From Acidobacteriota bacterium (GTDB taxonomy: Bacteria; Acidobacteriota; Terriglobia; Acidiferrales; 2-02-FULL-67-57), in contig JBBIPK010000006.1 of assembly GCA_037442885.1 (NCBI GenBank), positions 4,548 through 68,547 on the forward strand: a stretch of DNA of 64,000 nucleotides. Reading direction: 5' to 3'. The translations under genes were made by a program, and so were the position numbers. Under the pieces are notes generated by a model, which ran no database searches, was not told the DNA's origin, and saw only the letters and a program-made list of their open reading frames with translations. Below, in pieces: positions 7,866 to 61,665 of this stretch; positions within the stretch are counted from its first letter, which is position 1; every line of letters starts with the position of its first letter.

Positions 7866-7895
7866 GGGCTATTGGTTGATTGGTTCATCGGTCAC
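7866..7895. repeat. Short tandem 7-8 nt repeat array (TTGGTTGA type)
   Basis: TATTGGTTGATTGGTTCATCGGTCACTCAGG, immediately after the rlmH stop. Related to the arrays at 8562-8662. Confidence 0.7.
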
Positions 7896-8016
7896 TCAGG
7901 AGGTAGCTTGCAGGTTGCTGCTTCTCAAAGTAGAGTGGCTCGTCTTGGGCGGGGAGGGACAGAGAAGCCATTGTCCCCGGTGGCAGGAGCCACCGGGCTC
8001 GGTGCGAACGGGCTAG

Positions 8017-8556
8017 ATGGGTCAAGAGAAGAAAAAGGGATTGATTATTGTGCACACGGGGCCGGGCAAAGGGAAGACCACGGCCGCGCTGGGACTGGCC
8101 TTCCGCGCCGTCGGCAGCGGGCTGCGCGTGCTGATGGTGCAGTTCATCAAAGGCTCGTGGCACTATGGGGAGCTCGATGCCGCGAAGATGCTGGGCGCGG
8201 ACAAGTTCGTCATCCGGCCGATGGGGCGCGGCTTCGTCAAGCTGGGCGGGGAACTGGATCCGGCCGACAAGAAAGCGGCCGAGGAGGCCTGGACATTTGC
8301 CCGCGAGAAGATTTTCTCCGGCGAGTACGATATGATTATCCTGGACGAAATCAACTACGCCATCAGCTACGGGCTGCTGGGTGTCGCGCCCGTGGTGGAA
8401 GCCCTCGAGCAGAAGCCGGACAGCTTGCACGTGGTGCTGACGGGGCGGAACGCCGCGCCGGAAATTGTCGAGATGGCCGACCTGGTGACGGAGATGCGCG
8501 AGATCAAGCATCCCTACCAGAAAGGGTTTGATGCCCAGCGCGGCATCGAATACTGA
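8017..8556 (+). CDS. cobO: Cob(I)yrinic acid a,c-diamide adenosyltransferase (CobA/CobO/BtuR family)
   Basis: GLIIVHTGPGKGKTTAALGLAFRAVGSGLRVLMVQFIKG, ...DMIILDEINYA..., VLTGRNAP. Confidence 0.9.
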   Translation: MGQEKKKGLIIVHTGPGKGKTTAALGLAFRAVGSGLRVLMVQFIKGSWHYGELDAAKMLGADKFVIRPMGRGFVKLGGELDPADKKAAEEAWTFAREKIFSGEYDMIILDEINYAISYGLLGVAPVVEALEQKPDSLHVVLTGRNAAPEIVEMADLVTEMREIKHPYQKGFDAQRGIEY

Positions 8557-8561
8557 AGGAC

Positions 8562-8662
8562 GGTTGATTGGTTTATTGGTTGATTGGTTGATCAGGGGAA
8601 AGCAGATGCGCGCTGGCGACTCACTGAGCCGATCAACCGATAAACCGATTAACCAATAAACC
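8562..8662. repeat. Inverted pair of octamer arrays forming a long imperfect hairpin
   Basis: Left arm 8562-8592 is (GGTTNATY)x4 and right arm 8631-8662 is (GATNAACC)x4. The two arms are approximately reverse-complementary, with a 38 nt loop. Confidence 0.8.
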
Positions 8663-8665
8663 ACA

Positions 8666-9577
8666 ATGGCTTGGTTCCGCCGCGAAAAGAAGCCGCTGGA
8701 GACGCCGCCGCCCGAGGCGCGTCCGGTGAAGACCGAAGGGCTGTGGGTCAAGTGCGAGGGCTGCGCGCAGATTATCTGGAAGAAGGACCTGGAAGCCAAC
8801 CTGAACGTCTGCCCGCGCTGCCAGTACCACTACCGCATCAGCGCCGTGCAACGCCTGGAGTTGCTCTTCGACGAGGGGCGCTGGACGGAGCACGATGCGA
8901 ATCTGGCCTCGAATGACCCGCTGCGGTTCGTGGACACCAAGCCCTACAAGGAGCGCCTGGGAAGCGCGCGCGACGCCACCGGATTGAAGGACGCCATCAT
9001 CTTTGCCGAGGGCACGCTCGCCGGACGGTCGGTGCAGATCGGGGCGATGGAATTCGGCTTTATCGGCGGCTCGATGGGGGCGGTGGTGGGGGAGAAAGTG
9101 ACGCGGGCGATTGAGCGCTCGCGGGAACGCCACCTGCCGCTCATTATCGTCTCCTGCTCGGGCGGGGCGCGGATGATGGAGGGCGTAATCAGTCTGATGC
9201 AGATGGCGAAGATTTCGGCGGCGCTGGCGCGGCTGGACGACGCGCGCGTCCCCTACCTCAGCGTCCTCACCGACCCCACCACGGGCGGCGTCACCGCCTG
9301 CTACGCGATGCTCGGCGACCTGAACATCGCCGAACCGGGCGCTCTTATCGGCTTTGCCGGCCCGCGCGTCATCGAGCAGACCATTCGCCAGAAGCTGCCC
9401 GAAGGGTTCCAGCGCGCCGAGTTCTTGCTCGAGCACGGCTTTCTCGATGCGGTGGTGCACCGCAAGGATTTGAAGAACTATCTCGCGCAGGCGCTGGAAT
9501 TCTGCGCCCCGCCCCCACCCCCGGAGCCGACCCGGCCGCGGCTGGAGCCGCCACCCACCGCCTCCATCCTCCCCTGA
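8666..9577 (+). CDS. accD: Acetyl-CoA carboxylase carboxyltransferase beta subunit
   Basis: N-terminal Zn ribbon CEGC...CPRC, GGSMG, carboxyltransferase core. Confidence 0.95.
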
Positions 9578-9588
9578 CGGCATCGCTC

Positions 9589-10956
9589 ATGTCCTTGACT
9601 TACCAGGAAGCGGTCCAACGGCTCGCGTGGCTCGGGCACGAAGGCCGTGCGCTGAAGTGGGACCTGAAGAACATGCGCGCGGTGCTGGCCGCGCTGGGGA
9701 ATCCCGAACAGGCCTGGCGGAGTGTCCATATCGCCGGGACGAACGGCAAAGGTTCGGTGGCGGCCCTGCTCGACTCCATCCTGCGCGCGGCGGACTACCG
9801 CACAGGCCTTTACACGTCGCCACACTTGGTGCGCATCAACGAGCGCATCCGCGTCGAAGGGGCGGAGATCAGCGACCGCGAGTTCGCCGCGGCCTTCACC
9901 GCCGTGGAAGGCATCGTCGAGGCTTTGCTCGCCCGCGGCGACCTGCGCGACCATCCCAGCTTCTTTGAAACGCTCACCGCCATGGCCCTCTGGCACTTCC
10001 GCGAAGCGGGCGTGGAGGTTGCCGTGCTGGAAGTGGGCATGGGCGGGCGGCTCGATGCCACCAACGTCATCACCCCGCTTGTCTCCGTTATCACGCAGGT
10101 CGAGTTCGACCATGAACGCTACCTCGGCTCTTCGCTCGAGCAGATTGCAGGAGAGAAAGCGGGTATCTTGAAGCCAGGTGTGCCGGCGGTGATTGCGGCT
10201 GGGCATCCGGCAGCCCTGCGGGTCATCCGCGAGCGGGCCACGGCAGTGGGCGCGCCCCTGGTGGAGCTGGATGCCGACTATCGCGTGGAATCGCTCCGCC
10301 ACAACGGCGATGGCTACTACGAAGCTGAGCTAATGGCTGCGGACGGTTTCCAGCTGCGGCTGGCCCCGGCGTTGCGCGGAGCGGTGCAGGTGCGGAATGC
10401 GGCCACGGCGGCAGTGGCAGCCCAGCAACTGGTTCGAGCAGGGCTTCCCCTGCCGGCGGAGGCTGTTGCCCGCGGAATGGCAGAAGTGAACTGGCCGGGG
10501 AGACTGGAACGGGCAGGCGAGTCGCCTGACATTTATCTCGACGGGGCACACAACCCGGCGGCAGCGCGCGAGCTGCTGCGCTTCTGGGAGGAGGGGTGTC
10601 GCGGGCGCGCCCTCCACCTCGTCTTCGGCGCGATGCGGGACAAAGCCATTGCCGAGATGGCTGACCTGCTCTTTCATCAGCCCGCCTCCGTCATCGTCAC
10701 GCAAGCCGACTCGCCGCGGGCGGCCAGCGCCGAGGCACTGGCAGCCCTTGCGCGCACCCTGAATGCGAATGTGTTCGTGGAACCTGACCCGGTGCGGGCG
10801 TTGACTCGTGCGCGCGCCCTGGCTGCGCCCCAAGACGTCATCTGTGTGGCCGGATCGTTCTATCTGGTCGGCGCGGTGAAGAAGGCGCTCCGTGCGCAGC
10901 CCGAGCGGGCGGAGAGTTTCCCGCTGGCAGCCTCCCGGCCCGGGGCGCCGGTCTAG
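9589..10956 (+). CDS. folC: Folylpolyglutamate synthase / dihydrofolate synthase
   Basis: HIAGTNGKGS P-loop, Mur-ligase-like organisation, DGAHNP. Classic accD-folC adjacency. Confidence 0.9.
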   Translation: MSLTYQEAVQRLAWLGHEGRALKWDLKNMRAVLAALGNPEQAWRSVHIAGTNGKGSVAALLDSILRAADYRTGLYTSPHLVRINERIRVEGAEISDREFAAAFTAVEGIVEALLARGDLRDHPSFFETLTAMALWHFREAGVEVAVLEVGMGGRLDATNVITPLVSVITQVEFDHERYLGSSLEQIAGEKAGILKPGVPAVIAAGHPAALRVIRERATAVGAPLVELDADYRVESLRHNGDGYYEAELMAADGFQLRLAPALRGAVQVRNAATAAVAAQQLVRAGLPLPAEAVARGMAEVNWPGRLERAGESPDIYLDGAHNPAAARELLRFWEEGCRGRALHLVFGAMRDKAIAEMADLLFHQPASVIVTQADSPRAASAEALAALARTLNANVFVEPDPVRALTRARALAAPQDVICVAGSFYLVGAVKKALRAQPERAESFPLAASRPGAPV

Positions 10957-10958
10957 CC

Positions 10959-11699
10959 ATGGCGAGTTTGTGGCGGCGCGTAGCCGACCCCATCAGTTTC
11001 CTGCGCTCGCTGGTCTTTACGATTCCGCTCATCTACGTGCACACGATTCTGCTGGGATTCATCTCGTTCGTGCTGTCGCCCTTTGACCGCGGCGCGCGGC
11101 TGCAGCACGGTTGCGCGCGGCTCTGGGCGCGGATGATTCTCTGGACCAGCTTTGTCCGTCTGCGCGTGCGCGGCGCCGAGAACATCGATCCGGACCGCCC
11201 CTACGTCTACGTGTCCAACCACCAGAGCTACATTGACACCCCGATTGTGTTCGCGGCCTTGCCCGCGCGCTTCTGCATCATGGCCAAAGCCTCGGTCTTC
11301 CACATCCCGTTTCTGGGCTGGCACCTCCAGCGGACGGGAAACCTGCCCATCCCGCGCAACAGCCCGCTCACCTCAGCGCGGCGCCTGCTCGAAGCCACCT
11401 CCGCGATTCGCCAGGGGCGCTCGCTCTTCGTTTTCCCCGAGGGCGGGCGCAACCTCGAACCGGCCGTGGGTGAGTTTCGGCACGGAATTTTCATGGCGGC
11501 CATTCAGGCCGGCGTGCCGGTGGTGCCGATCACGATTCGCGGCTCGCGACCCGTGCTCGATTACCACTCGTGGACGATTCGCCCCGGCACGGTCGAAGTG
11601 ATTATTGATGCACCGCTTGAGACCGCCGGGATGGACAAGAGCCAGGCGGAGGAGTTGCGCGACACAGTGCGGAGCCTCATCGCGGCGCGCTTTGGCTGA
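10959..11699 (+). CDS. plsC: 1-acyl-sn-glycerol-3-phosphate acyltransferase
   Basis: NHQSYIDT (HX4D) and FPEGGR acyltransferase motifs; N-terminal TM segment. Confidence 0.85.
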   Translation: MASLWRRVADPISFLRSLVFTIPLIYVHTILLGFISFVLSPFDRGARLQHGCARLWARMILWTSFVRLRVRGAENIDPDRPYVYVSNHQSYIDTPIVFAALPARFCIMAKASVFHIPFLGWHLQRTGNLPIPRNSPLTSARRLLEATSAIRQGRSLFVFPEGGRNLEPAVGEFRHGIFMAAIQAGVPVVPITIRGSRPVLDYHSWTIRPGTVEVIIDAPLETAGMDKSQAEELRDTVRSLIAARFG

Positions 11700-16355: not shown

Positions 16356-17759
16356 ATGGCGATTTACCTTCCCGGAAAAGTCGGCGAGCCGGCGCCGGAA
16401 ACCGAAGCGCCCGCGGCAGGACTCGACGAACTGACGCCGCGGCAGATTGTCTCGGCGCTCGACAAGTACATCATCGGGCAGCAGCAGGCCAAGCGCGCCG
16501 TCGCCATCGCCCTGCGGAACCGGATTCGTCGGCAGAAACTCGAGCCGGAGATGGCCGAAGAAGTTCTGCCGAAGAATATTCTGATGATCGGGCCGACGGG
16601 GGTCGGAAAGACGGAGATTGCGCGGCGACTGGCACGGCTGGCGAACGCGCCCTTCCTGAAGGTGGAGGCTTCGAAATACACCGAGGTGGGCTACGTGGGC
16701 CGCGACGTCGAGTCCATGATCCGCGACCTGGTGGACGTCGCCATCGAGATGGTGCGGGAGGAAAAGCTGGAAGAAGTGGCCGAGCGCGCCGAGATGAACG
16801 CGGAAGAGAGGATGCTTGACCTGCTCCTGCCGCCACCCACCGCCACGGGCCCCGAAGACACACGGCAGCGGGAGAGCTTCCAGCAGACGCGGGAGAAAAT
16901 CCGCGCCCAACTCCGCGAAGGGCGTTTGGACGAGAAGTACGTTGAGTTGGAGGTGCGGGAGCGGAGCTTTCCGGCGTTTGAGATCGTCTCCTCGAGCGGC
17001 GTGGAAGAGATGGACGTGAACATCAAGGACGTGCTGCCGGGTTTGTTCGGCCAGATGAAGAAGAAGCGGCGGATGAAGGTCTCGGAAGCCTGGGAGTACC
17101 TAGTGGAGGAGGAAGAGAACCGACTGATTGACATGGAGCAGGTGACGCGGACAGCCGTCGGCCGGGTGGAGCAATCGGGCATCATCTTCATTGACGAGAT
17201 CGACAAGATTGCGGGCCGCGAATCGGGCCACGGGCCGGACGTGAGCCGCGAAGGCGTGCAGCGGGACATCCTGCCGATCGTGGAAGGCACGACCGTGAAC
17301 ACGCGTCACGGGATGGTGCGGACCGACCACATCCTGTTCATCGCCGCCGGGGCGTTCCACGTCACCAAGCCCTCCGACCTGATTCCCGAGTTGCAGGGGC
17401 GGTTTCCTATTCGGGTGGAGCTGCATTCGCTGACCGCGGAGGATTTTGTGCGCATTCTCCGGGAGCCGAAGAATGCGCTCATCCGGCAATACACGGCGCT
17501 GCTCGACACCGAAGGCATCCACCTGACCTTCACCGATGACGCCGCCGAAGAGATTGCGCGCTATGCGGCGCGCGTGAATGAAGGGATGGAAAACATCGGG
17601 GCGCGAAGGCTCTTCACCATCATGGAGAAGCTGCTCGATGAGATTTCCTTTGAGGCGCCAGACCTGAGGAAGAAACAGGTGAAGATTGACGCCGCCTACG
17701 TGCACAAGATGTTGGCCGACATCGTCAAGGACCAAGATCTGAGCCGCTACATCCTCTAG
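16356..17759 (+). CDS. hslU: ATP-dependent protease ATPase subunit HslU
   Basis: [17 protein letters not shown], Walker [16 protein letters not shown], Walker [11 protein letters not shown]-terminal [11 protein letters not shown]. Confidence 0.95.
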
Positions 17760-18838
17760 TGCCGTTCCAGCATTTCAGTCCCTTGTCTGTTTTCCTTTTT
17801 TTTCTTTCTCTCGTCTCTCTTGCCTGCGGGGTGGTGAGGCCGCCGGTACCGCCGACTCCGAAGATTCCAGTCCCGCCGCAGGACCTCGTGGCGGAGCAAC
17901 ACGGCGAGCAGGTGGTGCTCCGCTGGACGCTGCCGGCGCTCCATACGGATGGGACGCGCGTCACGGGTAGCCAGCAGATTGAAATTCACCGTTGGTTTGC
18001 GGGAAGCTCGGAGAACCTGAGCGAGCGATTTGGCGTCGAGGCTCAACTCATCTACGTCATTCCTGCGGACGTGGCGAGCCGATTTGAGCGCGAAGGGAAG
18101 ATCGAGTTTGCCGATCCGCTTGGACCGCGGCGGCTGGCCGAGCAGGCGGGCCGCTACGCGGTCTATGGCATTAAAGTGCTGAACCGGAAGGACGAGGCAG
18201 CCGCGTTCTCGAATCTCGTCGCCGTGCGGGTCTATCCCGTGCCCACCGCCGTTGCAAAGATTGAGACAGAGGTCAGCGAACGTGCCATCCGCCTGCGCTG
18301 GACACCTCCGAGCGAGACGACAAGCCGGACGCCGGTCCCCGCGATTGCCGGCTATCGCGTCTATCGGGGGCCGGAACAGGCGGAGAAGCTGCAACCGGTA
18401 ACGACAGTCTCGACGACTGACTATACAGATACGAATTTTCGATTTGGAGAAACCATCTACTACCGGGTGCGGGCGGTGGCGCAGTACGGGGAGGAGCAGG
18501 TGGAAGGGGTGGACTCGGCCATCGTCAGCGTGACGCCGCAGGATGTGTTCGCGCCGCCGACACCGGAGAATCTGACGGCTATTGCGAGCCGCGGGCGGGT
18601 GGATTTGACCTGGGACGCCAGCCCAGCCGCTGACCTGGCCGGCTACGTTGTCTATCGCGCCGAGCAACCGGAGGATGGGTATCGGCGCCTGAATCCCGAG
18701 GCAGTTGTCGTGCAGAGTTTCGGAGACACCGGGGTGGCAGCCGGGAAGACTTACTATTACGCGGTCACCGCAGTGGATCGCAGGGGGAACGAGAGCGCGC
18801 GCTCGCAATCTGCGGTCGTGACCGTGCCGGCGGAGTAG
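17759..18838 (+). CDS. Lipoprotein with fibronectin type III-like repeats
   Basis: Lipobox-like LVSLAC|G signal. Repeated LRWTxP / LTWDAS ... Y.VYR ... YYY.V.AVD patterns typical of FN3 modules. Confidence 0.7.
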   Translation: MPFQHFSPLSVFLFFLSLVSLACGVVRPPVPPTPKIPVPPQDLVAEQHGEQVVLRWTLPALHTDGTRVTGSQQIEIHRWFAGSSENLSERFGVEAQLIYVIPADVASRFEREGKIEFADPLGPRRLAEQAGRYAVYGIKVLNRKDEAAAFSNLVAVRVYPVPTAVAKIETEVSERAIRLRWTPPSETTSRTPVPAIAGYRVYRGPEQAEKLQPVTTVSTTDYTDTNFRFGETIYYRVRAVAQYGEEQVEGVDSAIVSVTPQDVFAPPTPENLTAIASRGRVDLTWDASPAADLAGYVVYRAEQPEDGYRRLNPEAVVVQSFGDTGVAAGKTYYYAVTAVDRRGNESARSQSAVVTVPAE

Positions 18839-20725: not shown

Positions 20726-20760
20726 CTGTACCTCGTACTCTGTACCCTGTACCTTGTGAC
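20726..20760. repeat. Tandem heptamer array (YYGTRCY)x5
   Basis: CTGTACC TCGTACT CTGTACC CTGTACC TTGTGAC, lying between the DUF3592 stop and the carboxyltransferase start. Confidence 0.8.
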
Positions 20761-36722: not shown

Positions 36723-37985
<1,263 letters not shown>

Positions 37986-38010
37986 TCACTATACCACCGC
38001 CCCCACGCAG

Positions 38011-38081
38011 GTGCGGGAGGGCACGACTTTAGTCGTGCCGAACGCAACAGCTAAGAAGAGGGGGGCTTTAGCCTCTGAGGT
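38011..38081. repeat. Dispersed two-hairpin repeat element, copy B
   Basis: TGCGGGAGGGCACGACTTTAGTCGTGCCGAA, spacer, GGCTTTAGCCTCTGAGGT. The stem carries a compensatory GGC/GCC to GAC/GTC change relative to copy A (7256-7324). Confidence 0.7.
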
Positions 38082-38958
38082 ACGGAGACAACCATGGCTT
38101 CCCCTTCTGGGTCGTCTTTGACGCTCAACCAGGACTGGAGCTACTATCGGCGGCGGTTTTGCATCAAACCCGCTGGGACAGGAATCACGAAAGAGCGTGG
38201 TTAGAAGATCATACGACTTGGCCCTAATCTTTTTTCTTCTAGGGGTCGTTGCCCTATCTGTCTTTGTCATTCGGAACGTATAAAGCTCATCCGAGAAGAG
38301 GAGCGAGAAAATAGGGCCGGGTGCCGGACGATCATTCCAGTGCCACAGGCAGGTTGGCCCACCCTTCGCTCTTTGAAGGGTGGGGCCGGTAGCGGCGAGG
38401 AATGCCAGCCTGGGTTCGTGGCATTCCTCGTCGGTCTGTCCAGGTCTGAGAAAAAAGCTCTTGCGGCTGGCACCCGTACGGGTGGCAATTAGGGCCTGAA
38501 CTATCGACGACGATTCGGGCAGACCGAATCGTCACCGCTACCCAAGCGGAAGGGCGCACAAGCAGATCCCTCCCCGCCCTTTCCGTGGCGGGCAGGTCTC
38601 GGCCTGTCTTGCGAATCGGCCGGAAAGGGCCGGGTCGGGATGACAGAAGCAAGAGTGCAATCGGCAGATTAGAAAGAGGATAGGGAGGAGATCCGCAAAA
38701 ACCGCACCGTCCGTACCGGCGGAGACAGGGAGGGGGAGAGGATGGTAACTGGTAACCCTTCGGCCTGCAGCCTCAGGGCAGGCTGGTGACTCGTGGCTGG
38801 TGCCTCGAGGCTTGTGCGCCGTTCGACTGCGCTCCCCCTCGACTCCGCTCAGCGCGATGATACGGGCTTCCACCGCCATGATGTCCCCATTCGGGCGCGG
38901 GCGCAGCGCGAAATCCTTGCCGCTGCCAGCCCCGCCTCGTGTAGGATAAGCAACTCCA

Positions 38959-41420: not shown

Positions 41421-41494
41421 CAGCAGTCAGCAGTCAGCTCTCAGCTTTCAGCCCAGCCGGGCAAGCCGAGTTTCGATTCTCGAGTTTCGTTCCG
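41421..41494. repeat. Two adjacent tandem heptamer arrays between convergent genes
   Basis: (CAGCWBT)x5 at 41421-41455 and (CGAKTYT)x4 at 41467-41494. Confidence 0.8.
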
Positions 41495-48056: not shown

Positions 48057-48060
48057 CCTT

Positions 48061-48090
48061 CGAAACTCGAAAAGCGAAATTCGAAACTCG
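48061..48090. repeat. Tandem heptamer array (CGAAAYT type) x4
   Basis: CGAAACT CGAAAAG CGAAATT CGAAACT CG. Inverted relative to the array at 48493-48525. Confidence 0.85.
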
Positions 48091-48094: not shown

Positions 48095-48532
48095 CTACTC
48101 TTCCCTTGATCCCCGTGCCCGTTTCCCGGTAGCCCGAATGTACCCATTTAGCACCTGTATTACCCGCTGAACAAACGCATCTATCTCGCGCCATTCTCTT
48201 TCTGAGAGGTAGCCCGCGTCCAGAGCTGTGGTGAGGTGATCACGCAGTTCGTAGGCCGAACCGCGCGCTTGGCGACAGAACTGGGTGTTTTCTCGATACG
48301 AAAACCGACCGAATCCTTCCGCGATGTTGGCCGTAATTGAAATCGCCGCGCGGCGAAGCTGTGGGGTCAGAATATGTCTTTCCTCGGCAGAAACCTTCGT
48401 CGTCAACTGATGGATTTTTTGCCGTAATTCTCGTGCTAACTTCCACGCATCTAGGTCGGTGAAGTCTCTGACGCGCAGTCGTGAAGTCTGGCCGAGTTTC
48501 GAGTTTCGAGTTTCGAGTTTCGAATCAGCCAT
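48095..48532 (-). CDS. Four-helix-bundle protein (23S rRNA intervening-sequence protein family)
   Basis: DAWKLARELRQKIHQLT...LRRAAISITANIAEGFGR....F..ARGSAYELRDHL. The N-terminal SKLETRNSKLG is encoded by the heptamer array. Confidence 0.85.
   Translation of the reverse strand: MADSKLETRNSKLGQTSRLRVRDFTDLDAWKLARELRQKIHQLTTKVSAEERHILTPQLRRAAISITANIAEGFGRFSYRENTQFCRQARGSAYELRDHLTTALDAGYLSEREWREIDAFVQRVIQVLNGYIRATGKRARGSREE
48493..48525. repeat. Tandem heptamer array (CGAGTTT)x4
   Basis: Four exact CGAGTTT units followed by CGAATC. Lies within the first codons of the four-helix-bundle gene. Confidence 0.9.
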
Positions 48533-50946
48533 TACGGATTGCTCCGGAGCACAACCAGCGTGGCGCCGGGGCCGCCGTGCTCGCGGTCGGCTTCGCGCAC
48601 TGATTCGACGTGCGGGTGCGTCGCCAGAAACTCTGCCAGGGCTTGCTTCAGCTTGCCCGTGCCAATGCCGTGCACGATGCGTACTTCGCCGTGGCCCGCA
48701 AGTACGGCTTCGTCCAAGAACTTGTCCACTTTCGCCAGCGCCTCCTCCACCCGCAGCCCCCGCACATTCATCTCGGTTGGAACCGCCGCGGTTTTAGGTT
48801 TTTCTATTTTCCAATTTCTCTTTTCTGGTTTCGGTTTTTCTATGGCTACGATGTCATCCAGTGCCACGCGCATTCGCAGGCTGCCCATCTGGACTTCCGC
48901 CGTGCGCGCGTCCAGCTTCCGCAGCACCTGCCCCTTCTGTTGAATCCCGCGAACGCGTATCCACACGCCGGGCACCACTTCCTCGGGCTCCACGCGCGCT
49001 TCCGGCACCGCGTCCCGAAGCTGCGGGATTGCCGCCCTCTCGCCCAGATGCGACACGACCGCCGCATCGAAGGCCTCTTTCGCTTCTGCCTGCGCACGGC
49101 CCGCCTGCCGCGCGGCGGCTTTCTCCGCCCGGCTGCGCGCCGCCGGCTCGCGAATCCCCTCCAGCACGCCGCGTAGCTCCGCACGGAACTGCTTGAGGAG
49201 GGCTTCCAACTCGCGCTCGAGCTCGCCCAGCTTCGCCCGCTGCGCCTTCAGCCACTCCTGGCGTACCGCCTCGCGCTCGGCGCGCAGCCGCTCCAGCTCC
49301 GACCGCACTTCACCCTGCAACTGCTCCAGTTCCTGCTGGGTGCGATGGAGCGAGCGAATGAACTCCGCGTTCTCGGCGGCCTCGGCAGTAAGCTTGCGGC
49401 GGGCCTCGGCAACAATTTCTCCCGGCAGACCCAGCCGCGCCGCCATCTCAATCCCGCTCGACACGCCCGGCACACCCAACAGCAACCGATAAGTTGGCCG
49501 CAGATTCACCTCATCGAATTCCACCGCCGCGTTCAACGCGCCCGGCGTCGCAGCGGCATAGGCCTTCAGCCGCTCGTGGTGCGTCGTGGCGACGACCATC
49601 GCCCCGGCCCGCCGGAAATGCTCGAGCAGCGCAATCCCCAGCGCCGCGCCTTCCTCCGGGCTGGTGGCCGCGCCCAACTCGTCGAGCAGCACGAGCGAGT
49701 GAGCGTTGGCCTCCCTCGTCATCTCCCGCAGGTTCAGAACGTGGGCCGAAAAAGTGGACAGATTTTCCACGATGGACTGCTCATCCCCGATGTCGGCCAG
49801 CACGTGCTCAAAGATCGGCAGGCGCGCTTCCTCAGCCGCCACCGGAATCGCCGCCTGCGCCGCCAGTGCCGCCAGCCCGATGGTCTTCACTGCCACCGTC
49901 TTCCCGCCCGCGTTCGGCCCGCTGATGACCAGCACGTGCTGGTCGGATTTCAACTCGACTGAAATCGGTACGACCGCGCCGTTGACCGCAGCCGCGCGGC
50001 GGGCCGCCTCGAGCAGCGGGTGCCGCACCGCGCGCAGCGTCAACGTCGAGTCGGCGCCGAACTGTGGGATGATGCAGTGGAAATCGCGGGCAAAGCGCGC
50101 GCGGGCAAAAAGCGCATCGAGATGCCCGATGATCTCCGCCGCCCGCTGGAGCACAGCGCGCCGCGCTGCCAGCCGGCGCGTCAACTCCGCCAGGATGCGC
50201 TGGACTTCAGCCGCTTCGCGCTCGCGCAACGCCACCAGCTCATTATTCAGCGCGATGGTTTCCAGCGGCTCGAGAAAAAGGGTCTGCCCGGTGCGGCTTT
50301 CGGCGTGCACGACGCCGTCGGGACGGCTGCGGGCGTCGGTGCGGATGGGCAGCACCAGGCGGCCGCTGCGCAGCGTGATGAACTCATCCTGCAAGGCCGC
50401 GCGGGCGGCAGCTTCTTCCAGCACGCGGCGCAGCGCCCGATGGAGCTTCTGCTCGGTGCGCTGGATCTCGGCGCGAACGTCGGCCAGCTCCGGCGAGGCG
50501 TAGGTGTCCATCTCCCCGCCAGGCAGGATCTTGCGCCGGATGTCGCGCTCCAGCGCCGAATGGTCTTCCAGTTCGGCGACAAGCTGGCGCAAACCGGGAA
50601 GCAGTTGCCGGAAGCGTGGCGCACCCAGCGTCGTCCGCGCCTGCGCGGCCGCATTCAGCAACGTCGCCAGTTCGAGAATTTCCGTGGGCGCCAGCACAGC
50701 GTCGCGGACGCCCAGTCGCGCCAGCAGTGCGGCCGGATCCGCCAGACTCGCAAACCCGAGGTCGTTCCCCTGGCGGATGAATTCCCCCGCTTCGGCGACG
50801 AGAGCAAGCTCCCGCTCAATCCAGGCGCGGTCGGTGGAGGGCGCGAGCGCTTCAGCGGCCGCGCGGCCGAGCGGGCAGGTTGTCCGCGCACATACCAGCG
50901 CCCGCAATTGAGGGAATTCCAAGCGCTCGAAGGCTTCGGGATTCAT
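48532..50946 (-). CDS. mutS2: Endonuclease MutS2 (MutS domain plus C-terminal Smr)
   Basis: Walker A ISGPNAGGKT, DELGAATSPEEG, coiled-coil region, Smr domain (NVRGLRVEEA...IVHGIGTGKL). Alternative start at 50970. Confidence 0.9.
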   Translation of the reverse strand: MNPEAFERLEFPQLRALVCARTTCPLGRAAAEALAPSTDRAWIERELALVAEAGEFIRQGNDLGFASLADPAALLARLGVRDAVLAPTEILELATLLNAAAQARTTLGAPRFRQLLPGLRQLVAELEDHSALERDIRRKILPGGEMDTYASPELADVRAEIQRTEQKLHRALRRVLEEAAARAALQDEFITLRSGRLVLPIRTDARSRPDGVVHAESRTGQTLFLEPLETIALNNELVALREREAAEVQRILAELTRRLAARRAVLQRAAEIIGHLDALFARARFARDFHCIIPQFGADSTLTLRAVRHPLLEAARRAAAVNGAVVPISVELKSDQHVLVISGPNAGGKTVAVKTIGLAALAAQAAIPVAAEEARLPIFEHVLADIGDEQSIVENLSTFSAHVLNLREMTREANAHSLVLLDELGAATSPEEGAALGIALLEHFRRAGAMVVATTHHERLKAYAAATPGALNAAVEFDEVNLRPTYRLLLGVPGVSSGIEMAARLGLPGEIVAEARRKLTAEAAENAEFIRSLHRTQQELEQLQGEVRSELERLRAEREAVRQEWLKAQRAKLGELERELEALLKQFRAELRGVLEGIREPAARSRAEKAAARQAGRAQAEAKEAFDAAVVSHLGERAAIPQLRDAVPEARVEPEEVVPGVWIRVRGIQQKGQVLRKLDARTAEVQMGSLRMRVALDDIVAIEKPKPEKRNWKIEKPKTAAVPTEMNVRGLRVEEALAKVDKFLDEAVLAGHGEVRIVHGIGTGKLKQALAEFLATHPHVESVREADREHGGPGATLVVLRSNP
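48790..48843. repeat. Degenerate heptamer array embedded in mutS2 coding sequence
   Basis: GTTTTAG GTTTTTCT ATTTTCCA ATTTCTC TTTTCTG GTTTCG GTTTTTCT. Encodes IEKPKPEKRNWKIEKPKT just before the Smr domain. Confidence 0.65.
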
Positions 50947-51554: not shown

Positions 51555-51582
51555 GTTTTCTAGTTTCTCTTTTCCGGTCTCG
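51555..51582. repeat. Degenerate heptamer array at the dacB 3' end
   Basis: GTTTTCT AGTTTCT CTTTTCC GGTCTCG. Encodes the dacB C-terminal ..RPEKRN. Confidence 0.6.
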
Positions 51583-53242
51583 TTGCTGCCGGCGGCAGTT
51601 CAGCCAAGAGGGCGGCGAGCTCGTCAATCAGGTCGAGGGCGCGCTGGTTTTCGAGCGTGTGGTGATTGACGAAGATAGCGAACAGCAACGGCTCGCCGCT
51701 CTGCGTCTCGATGAACCCGGCCAGCGCGTTCACGCTGCCTAGGGTGCCGGTCTTGGCGCGCACGCGGTTGTAGGCCGGCCCCTGTTTCATCCGGTCTTTC
51801 AGCGTGCCGTCCACGCCCGCCGCTGGCAGCGCCGCCAGAAACGCTTCGCGCCAGGGCTGCGCTTGAACGAACTTCAGCCATTGCACGACCCCGTGCGGTG
51901 TGACCAGATTCCCCCGCGCAAGTCCCGAGCCGTCCTCCAGGACAACGTCGTGCGGATTCACCCCCGCATTGGCCAGCAGGGCGCGAAGCACTTCCAGGCC
52001 CGCCTCGGCGCTGCCGTTGCCCAGCCGCGGCGGGCGCTCGTCTGGCTTCAACTTGCGCGGCGGCAGAGGCGAGGCCGGCGGCAACTTCCGTCCCAGCAAG
52101 CGCAGAAGCATCTCCGCGTGCAGGTTCTGGCTCTCTTTGAGAATCACCTTGACACCTTCGCTCAGAGGCAGCGACAGATGCTCGGCGAGAACGGTACGGG
52201 CTTCGGCGGCGTCCTCAGCCCGCGTAATCTCCGGCGCCTCCACCGTGGGCGTCGCGTGGTGGACACGCAGGCTGCCTTCGACGCGCACCCCGCGGGCTTC
52301 GAGCAAGGCGCGGAAAGCAGCAGCGGCAAACTCGGCCGGCTCATCGACCGCCAGAACGAGCTCACGCGCCTTTTGATCAAGTGCGATGGTGCCGCTGAGG
52401 GTCAGCTCGCGCCCCCCCGGCTCGCGCCGCAGCGAAAGCTCCGTGCGGTCGCCGGAGGCAACGGTGGCGATGCGATTGACGGCGCGGAAATAGCCGGTCT
52501 CCGGCAGCCAACTGAGCCGCGCGGGGTCGCCTTCACGCTCGCCGGGCTCGACCCGCAGCGTGACGCTATTGTCGTTGACCGCCAGCGCCGAGACGGCCGC
52601 GCCGTAACTCCAGAGCGTATCGCCCACGGCCCAGTCGGCAGGGAAGCGTTCGGGTGCGAAGAACGAGTCGTCGGCGATGAGATCGCCGGTGATGACGCGC
52701 ACGCCGGCTGCCACCACTTGGTCGGCGAGTTTTTCGAGAACAACCAGCGGTGGCTCCCAGGTTTCGCGCTTCTGGAATTCGACCGCGTAGGGCAGGCGGC
52801 GGCCGGAAAGATTGGGATCGCCGCGCCCGACCAGGTAGAGGTCGCCAAGGAGCCGCCCGAAAGCATCCACGCGCGCGGTAGTCTCAACCGTGGTGCGGAA
52901 TTGGTAGTCCGCCCCATAGACAGCCAGGGTGGCGCCGCTCGTAAAGAGTTTGGTGACAGAAGCGGGGGTGAAGAAGCGGTGGGCATTGAGCGAGTAGAGA
53001 GTCTGGCCGCGCTGCGGGGCAAACACTTCGATGCCCCAGAAGCCGCGGTCGGCTTCCCCCCGGCCGATGACCTCTCCGATGCGCTCCGCCAGCCAGCGCT
53101 CGGCGGCAGTTGGCCGTGCCCGCCGCTGTGCCGATAGAGGCAAAGGAAGCACAAGAGGCAGAAGAAGCAGAGGAACTAGGAAAAGCGCAGAACGCAACCG
53201 GCGTTCGGTTCCCGTTTCCCAGTTCCCGATTCGGGGTGCCAT
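51560..53242 (-). CDS. dacB: D-alanyl-D-alanine carboxypeptidase/endopeptidase (PBP4, S13 family)
   Basis: SxxK (PASVTKLFT), KTGT (RAKTGTLGSVN), signal peptide, about 560 aa. Confidence 0.85.
   Translation of the reverse strand: MAPRIGNWETGTERRLRSALFLVPLLLLPLVLPLPLSAQRRARPTAAERWLAERIGEVIGRGEADRGFWGIEVFAPQRGQTLYSLNAHRFFTPASVTKLFTSGATLAVYGADYQFRTTVETTARVDAFGRLLGDLYLVGRGDPNLSGRRLPYAVEFQKRETWEPPLVVLEKLADQVVAAGVRVITGDLIADDSFFAPERFPADWAVGDTLWSYGAAVSALAVNDNSVTLRVEPGEREGDPARLSWLPETGYFRAVNRIATVASGDRTELSLRREPGGRELTLSGTIALDQKARELVLAVDEPAEFAAAAFRALLEARGVRVEGSLRVHHATPTVEAPEITRAEDAAEARTVLAEHLSLPLSEGVKVILKESQNLHAEMLLRLLGRKLPPASPLPPRKLKPDERPPRLGNGSAEAGLEVLRALLANAGVNPHDVVLEDGSGLARGNLVTPHGVVQWLKFVQAQPWREAFLAALPAAGVDGTLKDRMKQGPAYNRVRAKTGTLGSVNALAGFIETQSGEPLLFAIFVNHHTLENQRALDLIDELAALLAELPPAATRPEKRN
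53207..53236. repeat. Heptamer-like array (GTTYCCN) at the dacB 5' end
   Basis: GGTTCCC GTTTCCCA GTTCCCGA TTCGGGG. Encodes the N-terminal PRIGNWETGT. Confidence 0.6.
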
Positions 53243-57976: not shown

Positions 57977-58005
57977 TTGACGCCTGCGCAGCGCTTTGTT
58001 AGGAT
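57977..58005 (+). promoter_or_regulatory. Candidate sigma70-type promoter for the RDD gene
   Basis: TTGACG, 17 nt spacer, TAGGAT, 32 nt upstream of ATG 58038. Confidence 0.45.
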
Positions 58006-58037
58006 GCGCCTCGCCGCAGCGCTCGGAGTAGCTGTTC

Positions 58038-58937
58038 ATGCAATGCCCGACCTGCGGTGTTTCTGTTCTTGCCGATTCCGGCAACTGCCGGAGTTGCGGC
58101 TGGACGCTCTCGCGCCCGCAGAAGGCGGGCAACGGAAACGGTCGCGAACTCCGCGCCCGACCGGCTGCGCTCCCGGCCGACCCGCAATCGGAAAATCGGA
58201 GTCATCCTCGCTTTGACAACAGCCAGGATAAATCCCTCCACCGAACCTCTACCGACAAGCCCGGGCAGGCCACGCCAAAGAACGTTGGCGGGCAGGCTTC
58301 GTTCTGGGGCTCGCTCCGCTCCTATCGGCCGCGCCGCCGCGGGCGCGGGTCGCGCGGCTATCCAATCAGCGCCGATGCGCTCGCCGAGTTGGGACAGGGG
58401 GCCTACTTCGCCGAGCGCCCGCGCGCCATCGAATGCATCGAGATGCCGCTGGTGCAGACGACACTCGACTTCAATCCGGCTGACGGCGAAGAAGAAATTC
58501 CGGTGGCCCATCGAGTGGCGCCGCTGGCGCCGCGCTTCCGCGCCGGCCTCTGTGATGCCGCCCTGATACTTGGTGCCGCAGCGGTCTTCTTCGCCCTGTT
58601 TGCGGCGCTAGGCGGCCCCGAGGCCTCGGGGGCGCTCGCGCGACGCGACCTGCTCATCTATGGCATCGCCACGTTTGCCCTGACGTGCCTCTACTTGGGA
58701 CTCTTCACCTATTTCGGCGGCTCTACCCCCGGCATGCGTCGCTATGGACTCATCCCGGTCCGCTTCGACGGCCAGCCCCTGACACCCGCGGACGCGCGGC
58801 TGCGCGCGTTCGGCTACGTCGTTTCCACCGGCTCGCTCCTGCTCGGCTTCTTCTGGGCGGTGGCCGACGAAGACCATCTCACCTGGCACGACCGCATCTC
58901 CCGCACCCTGCTCACCCAAGCCACGCCCCCAGCCTGA
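58038..58937 (+). CDS. RDD-family membrane protein with N-terminal zinc ribbon
   Basis: CPTCG...CRSCG ribbon, a long disordered linker, then an RDD-like domain with three TM helices (R..AGLCDAALILG... WHDRISRT). Confidence 0.75.
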   Translation: MQCPTCGVSVLADSGNCRSCGWTLSRPQKAGNGNGRELRARPAALPADPQSENRSHPRFDNSQDKSLHRTSTDKPGQATPKNVGGQASFWGSLRSYRPRRRGRGSRGYPISADALAELGQGAYFAERPRAIECIEMPLVQTTLDFNPADGEEEIPVAHRVAPLAPRFRAGLCDAALILGAAAVFFALFAALGGPEASGALARRDLLIYGIATFALTCLYLGLFTYFGGSTPGMRRYGLIPVRFDGQPLTPADARLRAFGYVVSTGSLLLGFFWAVADEDHLTWHDRISRTLLTQATPPA

Positions 58938-58992
58938 GCCCGCTACAGGCGTCACTCTCAGGCGGGCAGACCTCGCCCTTACTTTCTCTTCG

Positions 58993-59021
58993 TTGAGTTT
59001 TTCGGGCGGGCAACGTATACT
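58993..59021 (+). promoter_or_regulatory. Candidate promoter upstream of the small ORF and S41 peptidase homologue
   Basis: TTGAGT, 17 nt spacer, TATACT. Confidence 0.4.
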
Positions 59022-59066
59022 TCTTTCCGGGGAGGAGGGTCGGGCGCAAGAGCAATCCCTACGAGC

Positions 59067-59195
59067 ATGGGAAAGTTTCGTTTCTTGAATCAGAAACTCG
59101 GCAAGCGCGTGAAACGGAAGCAAGAACTGGAGCGGCGGCGGCTCGCCGGCTTCCGCAGAGCGCCACTGCCTTCGGGCGGAAAGAGAGCACGGTGA
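59067..59195 (+). CDS. Possible small basic protein (42 aa), translationally coupled to the S41 homologue
   Basis: MGKFRFLNQKLGKRVKRKQELERRRLAGFRRAPLPSGGKRAR. Its TGA overlaps the downstream GTG (GTGA). No good RBS, and it is below the ORF-track size cutoff. Confidence 0.25.
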   Translation: MGKFRFLNQKLGKRVKRKQELERRRLAGFRRAPLPSGGKRAR

Positions 59196-60397
59196 GCGCG
59201 CGGCTGCGGACGGGACTGATCGTGGTTTCCCTGGCGGTGGCGCTCTATGTGCTCATCGGCGGACTGCTCGGACAGACCGCCGGGGAAGGCGCCTACCGCC
59301 AACTGGGCGTCTTCAGCGAAGTCCTGACCCACGTCAAGAATTTCTACGTCGAAGACCCCGACATTCCCGCCGTTACCCGCGGGGCACTGCACGGTTTGCT
59401 GGAATCGCTTGATCCCTATTCGAGCTATCTCAGCCCGGCGGAGTTCGCCGCCTACCAGCAGCGCAACCCGAATCACACCGCCGATGTGGGACTCGTGCTT
59501 TCCAAGCGCTTCGGTTTGATCAGCGTGATTGCCACGCGCCCCGACAGCCCCGCCGAACGCGCCGGCCTGCGCGTGGGCGACATCCTGGAATCCATTGCCG
59601 GTTTTTCCTCGCGGGAAATGTCCATCGAGCAGGCGAAGCTGCTGCTGGCCGGCGAGCCCGGAACCACCGTCAAAGTCAGCGTGGTGCGGGAACGGCGCAG
59701 CGAGCCGAAGGAACTTGAGCTGGTGCGGGCGGTCTGGCAGGGACGCGTAGTAATGAGCGATCTCGTGAGCAGCGATGCCGGCTACCTCCGCGTCGTGACC
59801 TTCCAGCGGGGCACGGCCGCCGAACTCCGTGAGCACTTGCAACGGCTGCAACGCCGCCGCATCCGCAAGCTCGTGCTCGACCTGCGCGGCTGTGCCGGCG
59901 GCGAGGCAACGGAGGCCGTCGAAACCGCACGCCTGGTCATCGAAAAGGGCCTGCTGGCCTATCTCGAAGGGCAACAGGTGCCGCGGCAGCAGTTCACCGC
60001 CGATCCCCGCCACACGCTCTGGCGCGGACCTCTGGCGGTTCTGATTGACTCTTCCACCGCCGGGCCGGCCGAGCTCATCGCGGCGGCCGTGCGCGAACAC
60101 GGCCGGGGCGAACTCGTCGGCGAACAAACCTACGGCGTGGGCACGGTGCAGAAAGTGATTCCTCTGGACGACGGGTCGGGACTCATCCTTTCCGTCGCCA
60201 ACTATTACACTCCTGCGGGCAAGCCCATCCAAGAAGAAGGGGTTGACCCGACCGTGGCCGTGGCCGCCGAGCCGCTCGACGAGGAAGAGTTCAGCCCCGT
60301 TCTCCGTCCCCCGTTGGAGAACGACCCGGTGGTTCTGAAAGCGCTCGAAGTCCTGCGGGCCAAGGAGCGTGTGGTGGCTGCCCCTCCGGCTGCCTGA
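59192..60397 (+). CDS. S41 (C-terminal processing peptidase) family homologue with PDZ domain; catalytic Ser and Lys apparently substituted
   Basis: N-terminal TM helix, PDZ (GLRVGDILESI), DLRGCAGGE. The expected GSASASE reads SSTAGPAE and the expected TFGKGTVQ reads TYGVGTVQ. Confidence 0.8.
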   Translation: MSARLRTGLIVVSLAVALYVLIGGLLGQTAGEGAYRQLGVFSEVLTHVKNFYVEDPDIPAVTRGALHGLLESLDPYSSYLSPAEFAAYQQRNPNHTADVGLVLSKRFGLISVIATRPDSPAERAGLRVGDILESIAGFSSREMSIEQAKLLLAGEPGTTVKVSVVRERRSEPKELELVRAVWQGRVVMSDLVSSDAGYLRVVTFQRGTAAELREHLQRLQRRRIRKLVLDLRGCAGGEATEAVETARLVIEKGLLAYLEGQQVPRQQFTADPRHTLWRGPLAVLIDSSTAGPAELIAAAVREHGRGELVGEQTYGVGTVQKVIPLDDGSGLILSVANYYTPAGKPIQEEGVDPTVAVAAEPLDEEEFSPVLRPPLENDPVVLKALEVLRAKERVVAAPPAA

Positions 60398-60449
60398 GCG
60401 CATCCCGAAACGGGGCGACCGTCGCGCGGCCGGGGGCATCCCATCGAGT

Positions 60450-61556
60450 ATGAAAGTCCGAGGGCACGTGCTGGCCTGGGGGACGCTGTGGGCAGCGTTC
60501 CTGCTTCCGGGTGCCTGGGGGCAGCAAGCAACTCCGCCACGACCCGCCCAAGAAAGTCTGCAAGAGTTTCGTCTCCGCATCCAGGTCGACCTGGTCGCGA
60601 CGCCGGTGACGGTGTTGGACAGCCGCGGAGACTTCGTCTACGGGCTCACACGCAGCGACTTTACCGTCTGGGACAACGGCGTCCCCCAGCAGATCAGCCA
60701 GTTTGAGTTCTCCGATTCGCCCATTTCCCTGGCGGTGCTGCTCAACACGTCCAACCGCGTCCAGCCACTGCTCGACCGCGTTCGCCAGATCGGGATTCTC
60801 ATCAAGAGCTACATCCTGGGCGAACGGGGCGAGGCGGCCGTCGTCACCTTCGATGACGAAATTCACGTGCGGCAGGAGTTCACGAGCGATTCCGAAGTGC
60901 TGGAGAAGGCCATCAAGGCCATCAAGCCGGGCGGTGACCGAACACGCCTGGCCGACGCCATCGACACGGCCATCCGCCTGCTCGTGCCGCGCCCGCCTGC
61001 ACACCGCAAGGCCATCCTGATTGTGAGCGAGCCCCGCGATGTGGGCAGCGAGACCCCGCTGGGCGAGGTTCTGCGCACGGCGCAACTCGCCGACATCACC
61101 ATCTACACCGTGGGGCTCTCCTACTCGGAAGCACTCTGGCGAACCAAGCCGCAAGACCGCCAGCCGCCTGCCTCGCCCTATCCGCCCGGCGTCTTTCCCA
61201 CTCCGCCCCTGCCGGGCACGCCGCAGACTCCCACCACCGAGCAACAAAACCAGGCGCGTGCCGACCTGCTGGCGCTGATTCAGGTGCTGGTCTCCACTCT
61301 CCGCGCTCCCATTCAGCAGGACGTGCTGGAGGTGCTGGCCGCAGGCACGGGCGGCGCGGCGCACGGCCAGGCGAGCGACACGGCCTTGCAGGCAGCCATC
61401 AATCGCATCGGGCAGGAGCTGCACAACCAGTACGTGCTTGCCTACCGTCCGACCAATCTCCGCGAGCAAGGCTTCCACGAAATCCGTGTCCGTGTGCGCC
61501 GCAGCGACGTCCTCGTCCGTTCCCGCCCCGGCTACTTCATCGGCCACCCCGAATAA
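60450..61556 (+). CDS. VWA-domain protein (acidobacterial VWFA-related type), secreted
   Basis: Signal peptide. Motifs: F.L.VDLV...V.V.D..G..V..L...DF.V.DNG..Q.I..F, then VWA-like (AVV.FDD...). C-terminus YVL.Y.P........H.I.V.V. Confidence 0.8.
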   Translation: MKVRGHVLAWGTLWAAFLLPGAWGQQATPPRPAQESLQEFRLRIQVDLVATPVTVLDSRGDFVYGLTRSDFTVWDNGVPQQISQFEFSDSPISLAVLLNTSNRVQPLLDRVRQIGILIKSYILGERGEAAVVTFDDEIHVRQEFTSDSEVLEKAIKAIKPGGDRTRLADAIDTAIRLLVPRPPAHRKAILIVSEPRDVGSETPLGEVLRTAQLADITIYTVGLSYSEALWRTKPQDRQPPASPYPPGVFPTPPLPGTPQTPTTEQQNQARADLLALIQVLVSTLRAPIQQDVLEVLAAGTGGAAHGQASDTALQAAINRIGQELHNQYVLAYRPTNLREQGFHEIRVRVRRSDVLVRSRPGYFIGHPE

Positions 61557-61559
61557 CGG

Positions 61560-61665
61560 CAGAAAACAGAAATCAGAAACGAGAAAACACGCGCAGTCGC
61601 TCCACTCGCAGCCCTATCCCGTCGCGTCCTGTTCTCGATTTTCTGTTTTCTATTTTCTGTTTTCG
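61560..61665. repeat. Inverted pair of heptamer arrays between convergent genes (candidate bidirectional terminator)
   Basis: Left arm CAGAAAA CAGAAAT CAGAAAC GAGAAAA (61560-61589). Right arm ATTTTCT GTTTTCT ATTTTCT GTTTTCG (61631-61665). About 40 nt spacer. Confidence 0.8.

Follow-up and report, generated by a model that had tools for sequence, protein, structure and literature searches.

Heptanucleotide tandem arrays at gene boundaries in an Acidobacteriota genome, and an inverted pair of arrays that encloses a four-helix-bundle (S23p) gene

Short tandemly repeated repetitive (STRR) sequences are known from the cyanobacteria Calothrix and Nostoc, with the heptanucleotide units CCCCAGT (STRR1), TTGGTCA (STRR2) and CAACAGT (STRR3). 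A 64,000-nt stretch of contig JBBIPK010000006.1 from an Acidobacteriota bacterium (assembly GCA_037442885.1), hereafter the window, carries arrays that resemble them, being short, dispersed and mostly intergenic tandem heptanucleotides that lie beside gene ends and in some cases form inverted pairs. An earlier reading of this DNA (the original prediction) had drawn the parallel, which is sound as far as form is concerned. It does not extend to the units, none of which equals an STRR unit, and, unlike the cyanobacterial arrays, those of the window belong to an Acidobacteriota with 65% GC and comprise 4-5 degenerate units. Nor are such arrays unexpected outside the cyanobacteria, as had been supposed, because intergenic heptamer arrays near gene ends, often inverted, are already known from several non-cyanobacterial groups (PMC4679880, PMC4692102, PMC2700814). 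What had been missed is that one inverted pair in the window encloses a gene of the PF05635/TIGR02436 family, which is the best clue to the nature of the arrays.

Heptanucleotides are the commonest long class of simple sequence repeat (SSR) in many prokaryotes, according to Mrazek 2007 as cited in PMC4679880. Intergenic heptamer arrays near the ends of open reading frames (ORFs), often as inverted pairs, have been described in Xanthomonas (65% GC, unit GGGAATC) and Nostoc (unit GGGGAYT) (PMC4692102), and TAACTGA arrays in Beggiatoaceae and Bacteroidetes (PMC4679880). The window arrays share with the SSRs of Xanthomonas, Nostoc and Beggiatoaceae/Bacteroidetes a mostly intergenic position within tens of nt of ORF ends and a length of at least four units. 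In those groups, however, a single unit dominates genome-wide, whereas the window holds at least five unit types in 64 kb, and the G-quadruplex idea attached to GGGAATC cannot apply to most of them, since most units lack G-runs. In Geobacter metallireducens, 7-9-nt tandem repeats form paired sites on opposite strands of one spacer, with 3-5 repeats each; site A adjoins the first gene at its 3' end and site B the following gene at its 5' end. Classes 1-3 of these 'global regulator binding sites' were read as IHF/HU sites without test (Aklujkar 2009; PMC2700814). This is also the geometry of two pairs in the window (8562-8662 and 61560-61665), but the Geobacter unit consensus sequences are different (MTYCTGA and TCTCCGTS[Y]) and no enclosed gene was reported there.

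An enclosed gene is found in the intervening sequences (IVSs) of 23S rRNA in Coxiella burnetii, Leptospira and Brucella. In Coxiella the S23p ORF lies inside a 28-bp terminal stem, three GACAGAT heptamers and one degenerate copy stand just before its ATG, where they make up the stem's 5' side, in a number that depends on the strain, and the 5' cut of RNase III has been mapped to the first GACAGAT repeat; the S23p protein is seemingly not made, and the ORF decays while the element persists (PMC4990558). The window likewise has an S23p ORF within a terminal-repeat stem of ~28-32 bp, with heptamers at the ORF start (4.4 copies). Unlike the 23S IVS, it lies between mutS2 and dnaG and not in helix 9, 25 or 45 of 23S rRNA, its 5' arm falls within the sole available reading frame, and its unit sequence is different. 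The 23S stem is cut by RNase III (PMC4990558). Judged by its sequence, the window cassette has the anatomy of an experimentally processed IVS, placed within an mRNA operon.

The enclosed gene (48095-48532, - strand) encodes a four-helix-bundle protein of 145 aa ('23S rRNA intervening sequence protein', S23p; PF05635, E = 1.3e-30; TIGR02436, E = 2.3e-28). Its only solved homologue is Xanthomonas XCC0516 (PDB 2GSC, E = 8e-20, five chains), which has been described as a homopentameric toroid (PMC4990558). The gene order is mutS2, four-helix-bundle gene, dnaG, rpoD, and the ATG of the four-helix-bundle gene overlaps the mutS2 stop (TAATG). The 5' arm (48493-48524, - strand; TCGAAAC x4.4; Tandem Repeats Finder (TRF) score 62, 100% matches) lies in codons 3-13 of the sole in-frame ORF start (M-A-K-V-E-T-R-N-S-K-L), while the 3' arm (48059-48090, - strand; CGAGTTT CGAATTT CGCTTTT CGAGTTT CG; TRF 41) runs from 4 nt past the four-helix-bundle stop to 2-3 nt before the dnaG ATG (48056). 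The arms are 91% complementary over 32 nt and lie 402 nt apart, with a predicted arm duplex of -41.9 and -47.8 kcal/mol. Across the orthologues (L004-L010, ~10000-10035) the CGAAA core of the 5' arm is fixed and its two variable positions ignore codon position; a paralogue at another locus (L009) has its array upstream of a Shine-Dalgarno sequence and ATG. An RNase III cut within the 5' arm would take away the start codon of the four-helix-bundle gene.

The association of this gene with arrays is near-universal in several phyla. Scanning genomes with the four-helix-bundle protein yielded eight Acidobacteriota metagenome-assembled genomes (MAGs), most of which carry the label Acidiferrales, with proteins that are 61-71% identical; six have the gene in the mutS2-dnaG interval and conserve both arms, and in Candidatus Acidiferrum typicum UBA7541 (L011) dnaG and both arms are kept next to a different upstream gene. 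In this last genome (9998-10288) the four-helix-bundle gene upstream of dnaG is frameshifted or truncated and both arrays are retained, although an assembly error is possible. A Desulfobacterales homologue with 40% identity is bracketed by inverted TTTGTTA/TTGGTTA arrays. Long CYTCTGA-type arrays, which match the class 3 consensus MTYCTGA of Geobacter metallireducens, were also seen on the Desulfobacterales contig (L012, 6297-6520).

A scan of metagenomes with an alignment of homologues, in which loci were selected by protein similarity only, gave 80 loci with GC contents of 33-67%. The density of period-7 arrays in these was 4.29/kb up to 150 nt from the gene and 0.256/kb in the remaining sequence, a comparison that pools non-coding and coding DNA. 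An array was present upstream at 65 of 79 loci, downstream at 68 of 76 and on both sides at 53 of 75. In a control restricted to the spacers of GC-rich loci, 65 of 69 gene-touching spacers held an array (94%) as against 22 of 172 other spacers of at least 25 nt (13%), the latter count including some gene flanks that were mis-assigned. Some 30 loci share the mutS2-dnaG context, with gene and arms conserved, and the remainder lie in 30 or more others; when distinct gene contexts with both flanks available were counted, an array stood on at least one side in all 32 and on both sides in 24. Matches on plasmids were all cyanobacterial (12/12). Four of them were inspected (Nostoc punctiforme, Calothrix brevissima, Nostoc sp. 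ATCC 53789 and Geminocystis), and in each the gene, annotated 'four helix bundle protein / S23 ribosomal protein', has inverted arrays on its two sides. Published data for Xanthomonas agree with the association, a GGGAATC x4 array lying over the start codon of the homologue XCC0516 (PMC4692102 supplement). No relatives were found when viral contigs were scanned with the same protein alignment.

The gene-flanking arms are 30-37 nt long, with 4-5 units, each of which has a fixed 5-nt core and two variable positions. The units vary by lineage (CGAAACT, GAAAATG, GAAACTG, GGTCATT, AGTTGAGT, CGTTAAA, GGATAGA and others), and a switch of unit always hits both arms together, even within the single mutS2-dnaG context. 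At two metagenome loci (L068 and L075) the arms around the gene are GGTCATT/AATGACC, which is the STRR2 unit TTGGTCA; the literature yielded no report that connects STRRs with the four-helix-bundle family. Metagenome contigs also hold very long arrays (L033 4585-4783; L066 3554-3661 and 4516-4907; L076 2384-2604; several in L064), among them a 199-nt array of TCGAAAR and a period-8 array of 392 nt, and since these share the unit types of the gene-flanking arms, the arms are capable of massive expansion.

Within the window, tandem repeats were detected with TRF (score of at least 30) and with a separate lag-autocorrelation scan (threshold 10), for which the null was 100 shuffles in 60-nt blocks with local composition kept. 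Genes adjoining arrays were named by Pfam, and TIGR02436 and Rfam were also searched; at the gathering threshold Rfam gave no match in the window, rRNA or other. TRF placed period-7/8 arrays at 8562, 8629, 20726, 41421, 41434, 48060, 48493, 48800, 61560 and 61639. By the lag scan the ~7 kb of non-coding DNA held four period-7 arrays against 0.22 expected and three period-8 arrays against 0.20 expected, or seven against ~0.4 combined, two further period-7 arrays, at 48060 and 48493, being counted as coding only through over-extended ORFs. Non-triplet periods other than 7 and 8 were not enriched (non-coding counts were 0 for periods 5, 11 and 13, 1 for period 4 and 2 for period 10), and periods 6, 9, 12 and 15 were restricted to coding DNA. 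The non-coding DNA of the window and 12 related loci together held 25 period-7 and nine period-8 arrays, and each remaining non-triplet period in the range 4-13 gave 0-4, although this count is largely one orthologous locus sampled repeatedly.

The reading that we favour, with a probability of roughly 0.45, is that the arrays are IVS-like stem-loop insertions into very short spacers, with stems that are probable RNase III substrates. The arrays would be the arms, or the leftover or nascent half-arms, of stem-loops inserted into formerly very short spacers, and two inverted arms, each of 4-5 copies of a 7- or 8-nt unit, would pair in the transcript to give a stem of 26-32 bp. One such stem would enclose the S23p gene, reproducing the architecture of an IVS in an mRNA operon (mutS2, four-helix-bundle gene, dnaG, rpoD) instead of in rRNA, and two gene-less hairpins in the window would be ORF-less versions. 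A stem of this kind would bring the flanking codons, a stop on the upstream side and a start or stop on the downstream side, back to within ~10 nt of one another; insertion would thereby be structurally almost silent, hence the position of the arrays abutting gene ends. From the analogy with the rRNA element of Coxiella the stem would be a probable RNase III processing site, and we infer that the arms are transcribed and that RNase III cleaves them.

Inverted pairing of arrays, which the original prediction had noticed, is borne out: the three best inverted repeats of the whole window are array pairs, with predicted stems of 26-32 bp. In addition to the pair around the four-helix-bundle gene, these are 8562-8593 with 8631-8662 (32 nt, 84% complementary) and 61562-61587 with 61639-61664 (26 nt, 85%). 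The former makes a gene-less hairpin that fills the spacer between cobO and accD, with a 5' arm of GGTTGATT x4 (8562-8593, + strand; TRF 55) and a 3' arm of the AATCAACC type x4 (8631-8662, + strand; TRF 47/54), whose edge is 3 nt before the accD ATG (8666). Its predicted fold reaches -50.6 kcal/mol on the + strand (z = -8.2 against shuffles) and -37.2 kcal/mol on the - strand; the greater stability of the sense fold means that the mismatches are G.U wobbles on the transcribed strand. The latter, at 61560-61665, sits between two convergent genes and also encloses no gene. Its 5' arm, of CAGAAAA type x4 (61560-61589, + strand; TRF 39), begins 3 nt past the stop of a VWA gene, and its 3' arm, of TTTTCTG type x4 (61632-61665, + strand; TRF 45 and 60), has its edge 3 nt before the stop of an M20 peptidase gene on the - strand; its fold too is far better than that of shuffles, with z = -4.9 (+ strand) and z = -5.5 (- strand). 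For the gene-flanking arms at large, the arm-arm duplex has a median energy of -32 kcal/mol as against -16 for a same-orientation control, computed on the arms only; flanks of 245 x 290 nt are uninformative, giving -60 to -200 kcal/mol even for shuffles.

A weaker array of the TTGGTTGA type lies 5 nt past the rlmH stop (7866-7895, + strand; lag scan period 8, score 10). It has the unit and orientation of the array at 8562-8592, to which it is 79% identical, and its complementarity to the 3' arm on the far side of cobO (8631-8662) is also 79%. Long-range pairing of 7866-7895 with 8631-8662, which would enclose the whole of cobO, is a possible alternative to the local hairpin.

The inverted pairs might also be taken for terminators or insulators, bidirectional between convergent genes, in which A-rich 5' and U-rich 3' arms extend a central hairpin. 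The pair at 61560-61665 would suit this role, as it lies between convergent genes and, read on either strand, has a 5' arm rich in A and a 3' arm rich in U around a GC-rich centre; moreover, canonical terminator-like sites in the window are at chance level (21 vs 15.6 and 17 vs 14.1), so that some other signal must end transcripts. We nevertheless consider this reading very unlikely, because the cobO-accD and mutS2-dnaG pairs lie inside co-directional, syntenic, operon-like strings in which termination would do harm, the polarity of the cobO-accD pair is reversed, its 5' arm being U/G-rich, and no terminator-like call falls on an array. Intrinsic terminators proper, with a short GC-rich stem and a U tract, were rejected on the same absence of calls and on counts at shuffle level, and consensus scans of the window for promoters as well as terminators stayed at chance level, with no call touching an array.

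Several other candidates were set aside. Miniature inverted-repeat transposable elements and repetitive extragenic palindromes do not fit, since the window holds no near-identical copies, the arms share unit type only (71-82% identity), and no target-site duplication was seen at the cobO-accD insertion. The arrays run head-to-tail and have no spacers, unlike CRISPR. A role as stop-codon trap is only partly tenable, in that TGA occurs in some units, whereas CGAAACT, CTGTACC and CAGAAAA lack a stop in both orientations. A general role as translation-initiation leader is ruled out by arrays that follow the stops of convergent genes.

Comparison of the cobO-accD spacer between relatives bears on how arrays arise. 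CobO (8017-8556) is 80-94% identical to proteins of Terriglobia/Candidatus Acidiferrales MAGs, and gene order is conserved against three contigs from such MAGs. Four states of the spacer were met among relatives with 85-94% protein identity: in two (L003 and L094) it is 9-10 nt long and has no array, in two (L093, 94% protein identity, and L001) it holds NNGCTGA x3-4, in one (L002) TACNNNG x4 and in one (L095) two AACC-type units, while in the window it is taken up by the full 109-nt hairpin. The spacer of 9-10 nt supports insertion into a very short spacer. In L093 and L001 (ATACTGA) and in L002 (TACTGAG) the stop codon of cobO falls within the first unit, which agrees with local tandem duplication.

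These observations also speak for arrays as neutral by-products of a slippage or duplication bias of 7 nt, tolerated only where frameshifts are harmless, with pairing and gene association secondary. Four spacer states among relatives with 85-94% protein identity, and a first unit that includes the cobO stop, are what duplication in situ predicts. Copy number differs among Coxiella strains (PMC4990558), and the excess of heptanucleotide SSRs is widespread and has been attributed to polymerase slippage (PMC4679880, PMC4692102). As an account of all the arrays we think it unlikely, however. The gene-flanking arms keep their position, orientation, core and 4-unit length at 61-71% protein identity, and arrays are present in 94% of gene-adjacent spacers but 13% of others; the unit types GTACC, GCTGA, CGAAA and GAAAA recur across genomes and loci; and the arrays are degenerate, not perfect, and are thus not recent products of slippage. 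Neutral slippage suits the solo arrays and does not account for the conserved arms. In ordinary spacers, solo arrays turn over fast and, to go by their sequences, are probably short-lived and born of local 7-nt slippage, most of them being transient, whereas the gene-flanking arms are conserved across the order. Insertion and its rivals are in part compatible: slippage could give rise to arrays that are then kept as paired stems.

A further possibility is TRAP-like binding, in which the arrays are putative multivalent sites for a ring-shaped protein and each 7-nt unit is read by one subunit of the pentameric four-helix-bundle protein. The gene would then be flanked by its own sites for autoregulation and the other arrays would be a regulon or decoys. 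Consistent with this, the arms have 4-5 units and the one homologue of solved structure forms a homopentamer, two positions of the unit are free without clear compensation next to a fixed core, unit type follows protein lineage, and solo arrays and arms are of equal length, ~30 nt. Xanthomonas has 186 GGGAATC arrays; in the published table, repeat 15 (GGGAATC x4) is found at a distance of 6 nt from bccP, overlapping the XCC0516 start codon (PMC4692102 supplement). We regard such binding as unlikely all the same. The two arms, being complementary, differ in RNA and could not both be read by one single-strand binder, the 64 kb of the window hold five or more types of unit and only a single gene of this kind, the Coxiella element persists with an S23p that is apparently unmade and an ORF that is decaying (PMC4990558), and in L011 the arms are kept despite a frameshifted gene.

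Insertion of IVS-like stem-loops remains our preferred explanation, and a number of results weigh against it. Four or five of the arrays in the window are solo and have no RNA fold, and about eight spacers bear arrays, only one of which holds a four-helix-bundle gene. No rnc gene is in view, and insertion leaves the period of 7 in the arms unaccounted for. A signal specific to RNA was seen only in the cobO-accD hairpin; across 72 cassettes there was no asymmetry between sense and antisense energies (p = 0.55). Covariation within the CGAAA family, for which the sample was 11 distinct 4-unit arm pairs, was not significant, with 89.1% of cells paired as against 88.1% after shuffling (57/500 shuffles reach this value), and double-sided pair changes numbered 5 against 3.1 expected (31/500). 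Arms formed duplexes with their own partner that were little better than with others (-36.0 vs -34.5 kcal/mol, p = 0.024), which is a weak point. The two variable positions of the unit are often unpaired, so that the stem consists of 5-bp blocks with bulges.

More broadly, the arrays of cyanobacteria, Xanthomonas, Geobacter/Desulfobacterota and Acidobacteriota may belong to one ancient and undescribed class of element, consisting of an S23p gene with inverted arms of ~30 nt, together with ORF-less derivatives, of which the 23S IVS would be the special case in rRNA; the pentamer may read the units and RNase III process the stem. We put this forward tentatively, as a unification that is doubtful on the present evidence. 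If true, it would open a mechanistic route to what STRRs do.

To our knowledge no function has been assigned to the large S23p/TIGR02436 four-helix-bundle family. Heptamer arrays have been catalogued in several phyla with their function given as unknown (PMC4692102, PMC4679880). The pairing of gene and array, found in at least four phyla, ties these two functional unknowns together and makes both testable. In the open-access literature we found no report of heptamer arrays in Acidobacteriota, and none of a general bracketing of S23p/TIGR02436 genes by arrays beyond the remark on heptamers in Coxiella (PMC4990558), although an older description is possible; the link between gene and array appears to be undescribed beyond that one species. 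There are practical consequences as well: arms that lie over start codons give rise to spurious N-terminal extensions in annotation, arrays can end up in coding linkers, as in mutS2 here, and they are likely breakpoints in metagenome assembly.

The original prediction had counted at least eleven loci with tandem arrays in the window, and it is partly borne out. Eight of the listed arrays are confirmed (8562-8592, 8629-8662, 20726-20757, 41421-41452, 48060-48090, 48493-48523, 61560-61589 and 61632-61665) and three are weak or degenerate but plausible (7866-7895, 41467-41494 and 53206-53232), while four of the twelve loci named turned out to be coding or not significant. The arrays are ~30 nt long (4-5 units) and comprise the units GGTTGATT, CTGTACC, CAGCAGT/CAGCTNT, CGAAACT, CAGAAAA and GGGAAMN. 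Copies are perfect at 48493-48523 (100%) and match at 75-91% in the remaining arrays (TRF). Their placement at gene boundaries was seen correctly, real arrays having an edge 2-9 nt from a stop or start codon.

Among the solo arrays, one of CTGTACC type (20726-20757, + strand; TRF 31-40, lag score 13) occupies the 45 nt that separate a DUF3592 gene from a carboxyltransferase gene; it has no fold (z = +0.28) and no inverted partner within the window. Another, of CAGCAGT/CAGCTNT (41421-41452, + strand; TRF 36 and 31, lag score 19), lies in a convergent spacer 2 nt past the stop of a DUF2231 gene and has no significant RNA fold. A degenerate array of CGAGTTT type follows (41467-41494, + strand), which neither TRF nor the lag scan at threshold 10 detected; its unit is that of the arms around the four-helix-bundle gene and it is 79% identical to the array at 48493. 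An array absent from the earlier list, (NNNNGAA) x5-6 (937-982, + strand; lag scan period 7, score 10), constitutes the entire 46-nt spacer between a peptidase S9 stop (936) and the start of an amidohydrolase with a Tat signal (983), and is unstructured as RNA (z = +0.83). The weak GGGAAMN-type array at 53206-53232 (- strand; lag score 10, no RNA fold) has the hemB stop (53242) on one side and, on the other, what is probably the signal-peptide start of a peptidase S13 ORF, and its status is ambiguous between a spacer array and an N-terminal extension of that ORF, which has an alternative TTG start 45 nt downstream of the ATG.

The GAAA-rich, array-like stretch of 54 nt at 48790-48843 (- strand; TRF 33, lag score 16) has a real periodicity, as had been claimed, but it is coding, in frame in the linker of mutS2. 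It lies between the SH3 and Smr domains of MutS2 (codons ~708-726), is AT-rich with period 7 (IEKPKPEKRNWKIEKPKT), and looks from its sequence like an array absorbed into coding sequence; the linker in four orthologues (L004, L005, L007 and L010) is unrelated and GC-rich. Two further loci were dropped. The pyrimidine-rich stretch at 17787-17823, put forward as a possible further array, codes for the signal peptide of a lipoprotein (VFLFFLSLVSLAC), conserved among orthologues, and 51555-51582, which matched in neither TRF nor the lag scan, consists mostly of the terminal codons of the peptidase S13 ORF.

A few other features of the window were recorded. A perfect sigma-70 consensus promoter (TTGACA, 17 nt, TATAAT; 4428-4456) lies upstream of rplU (4814-5131), within a 490-nt stretch that has no called gene. 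About 1 kb at 37956-38958 has no convincing ORF on a map based on GC at third codon positions and no Rfam match; a perfect 13-nt repeat (x2.3; 37876-37905) stands at its edge and a 14-nt repeat (x2.7; 38780-38817) within it. The motif TAGTGCCGTTCCA(A/G)C is found repeatedly at gene ends (window 17757-17771, L003 2459-2529, L001 8084-8094), overlapping the hslU stop in the window and forming a perfect 17-nt inverted repeat directly after the rlmH stop in L003, and may represent a separate small repeat family.

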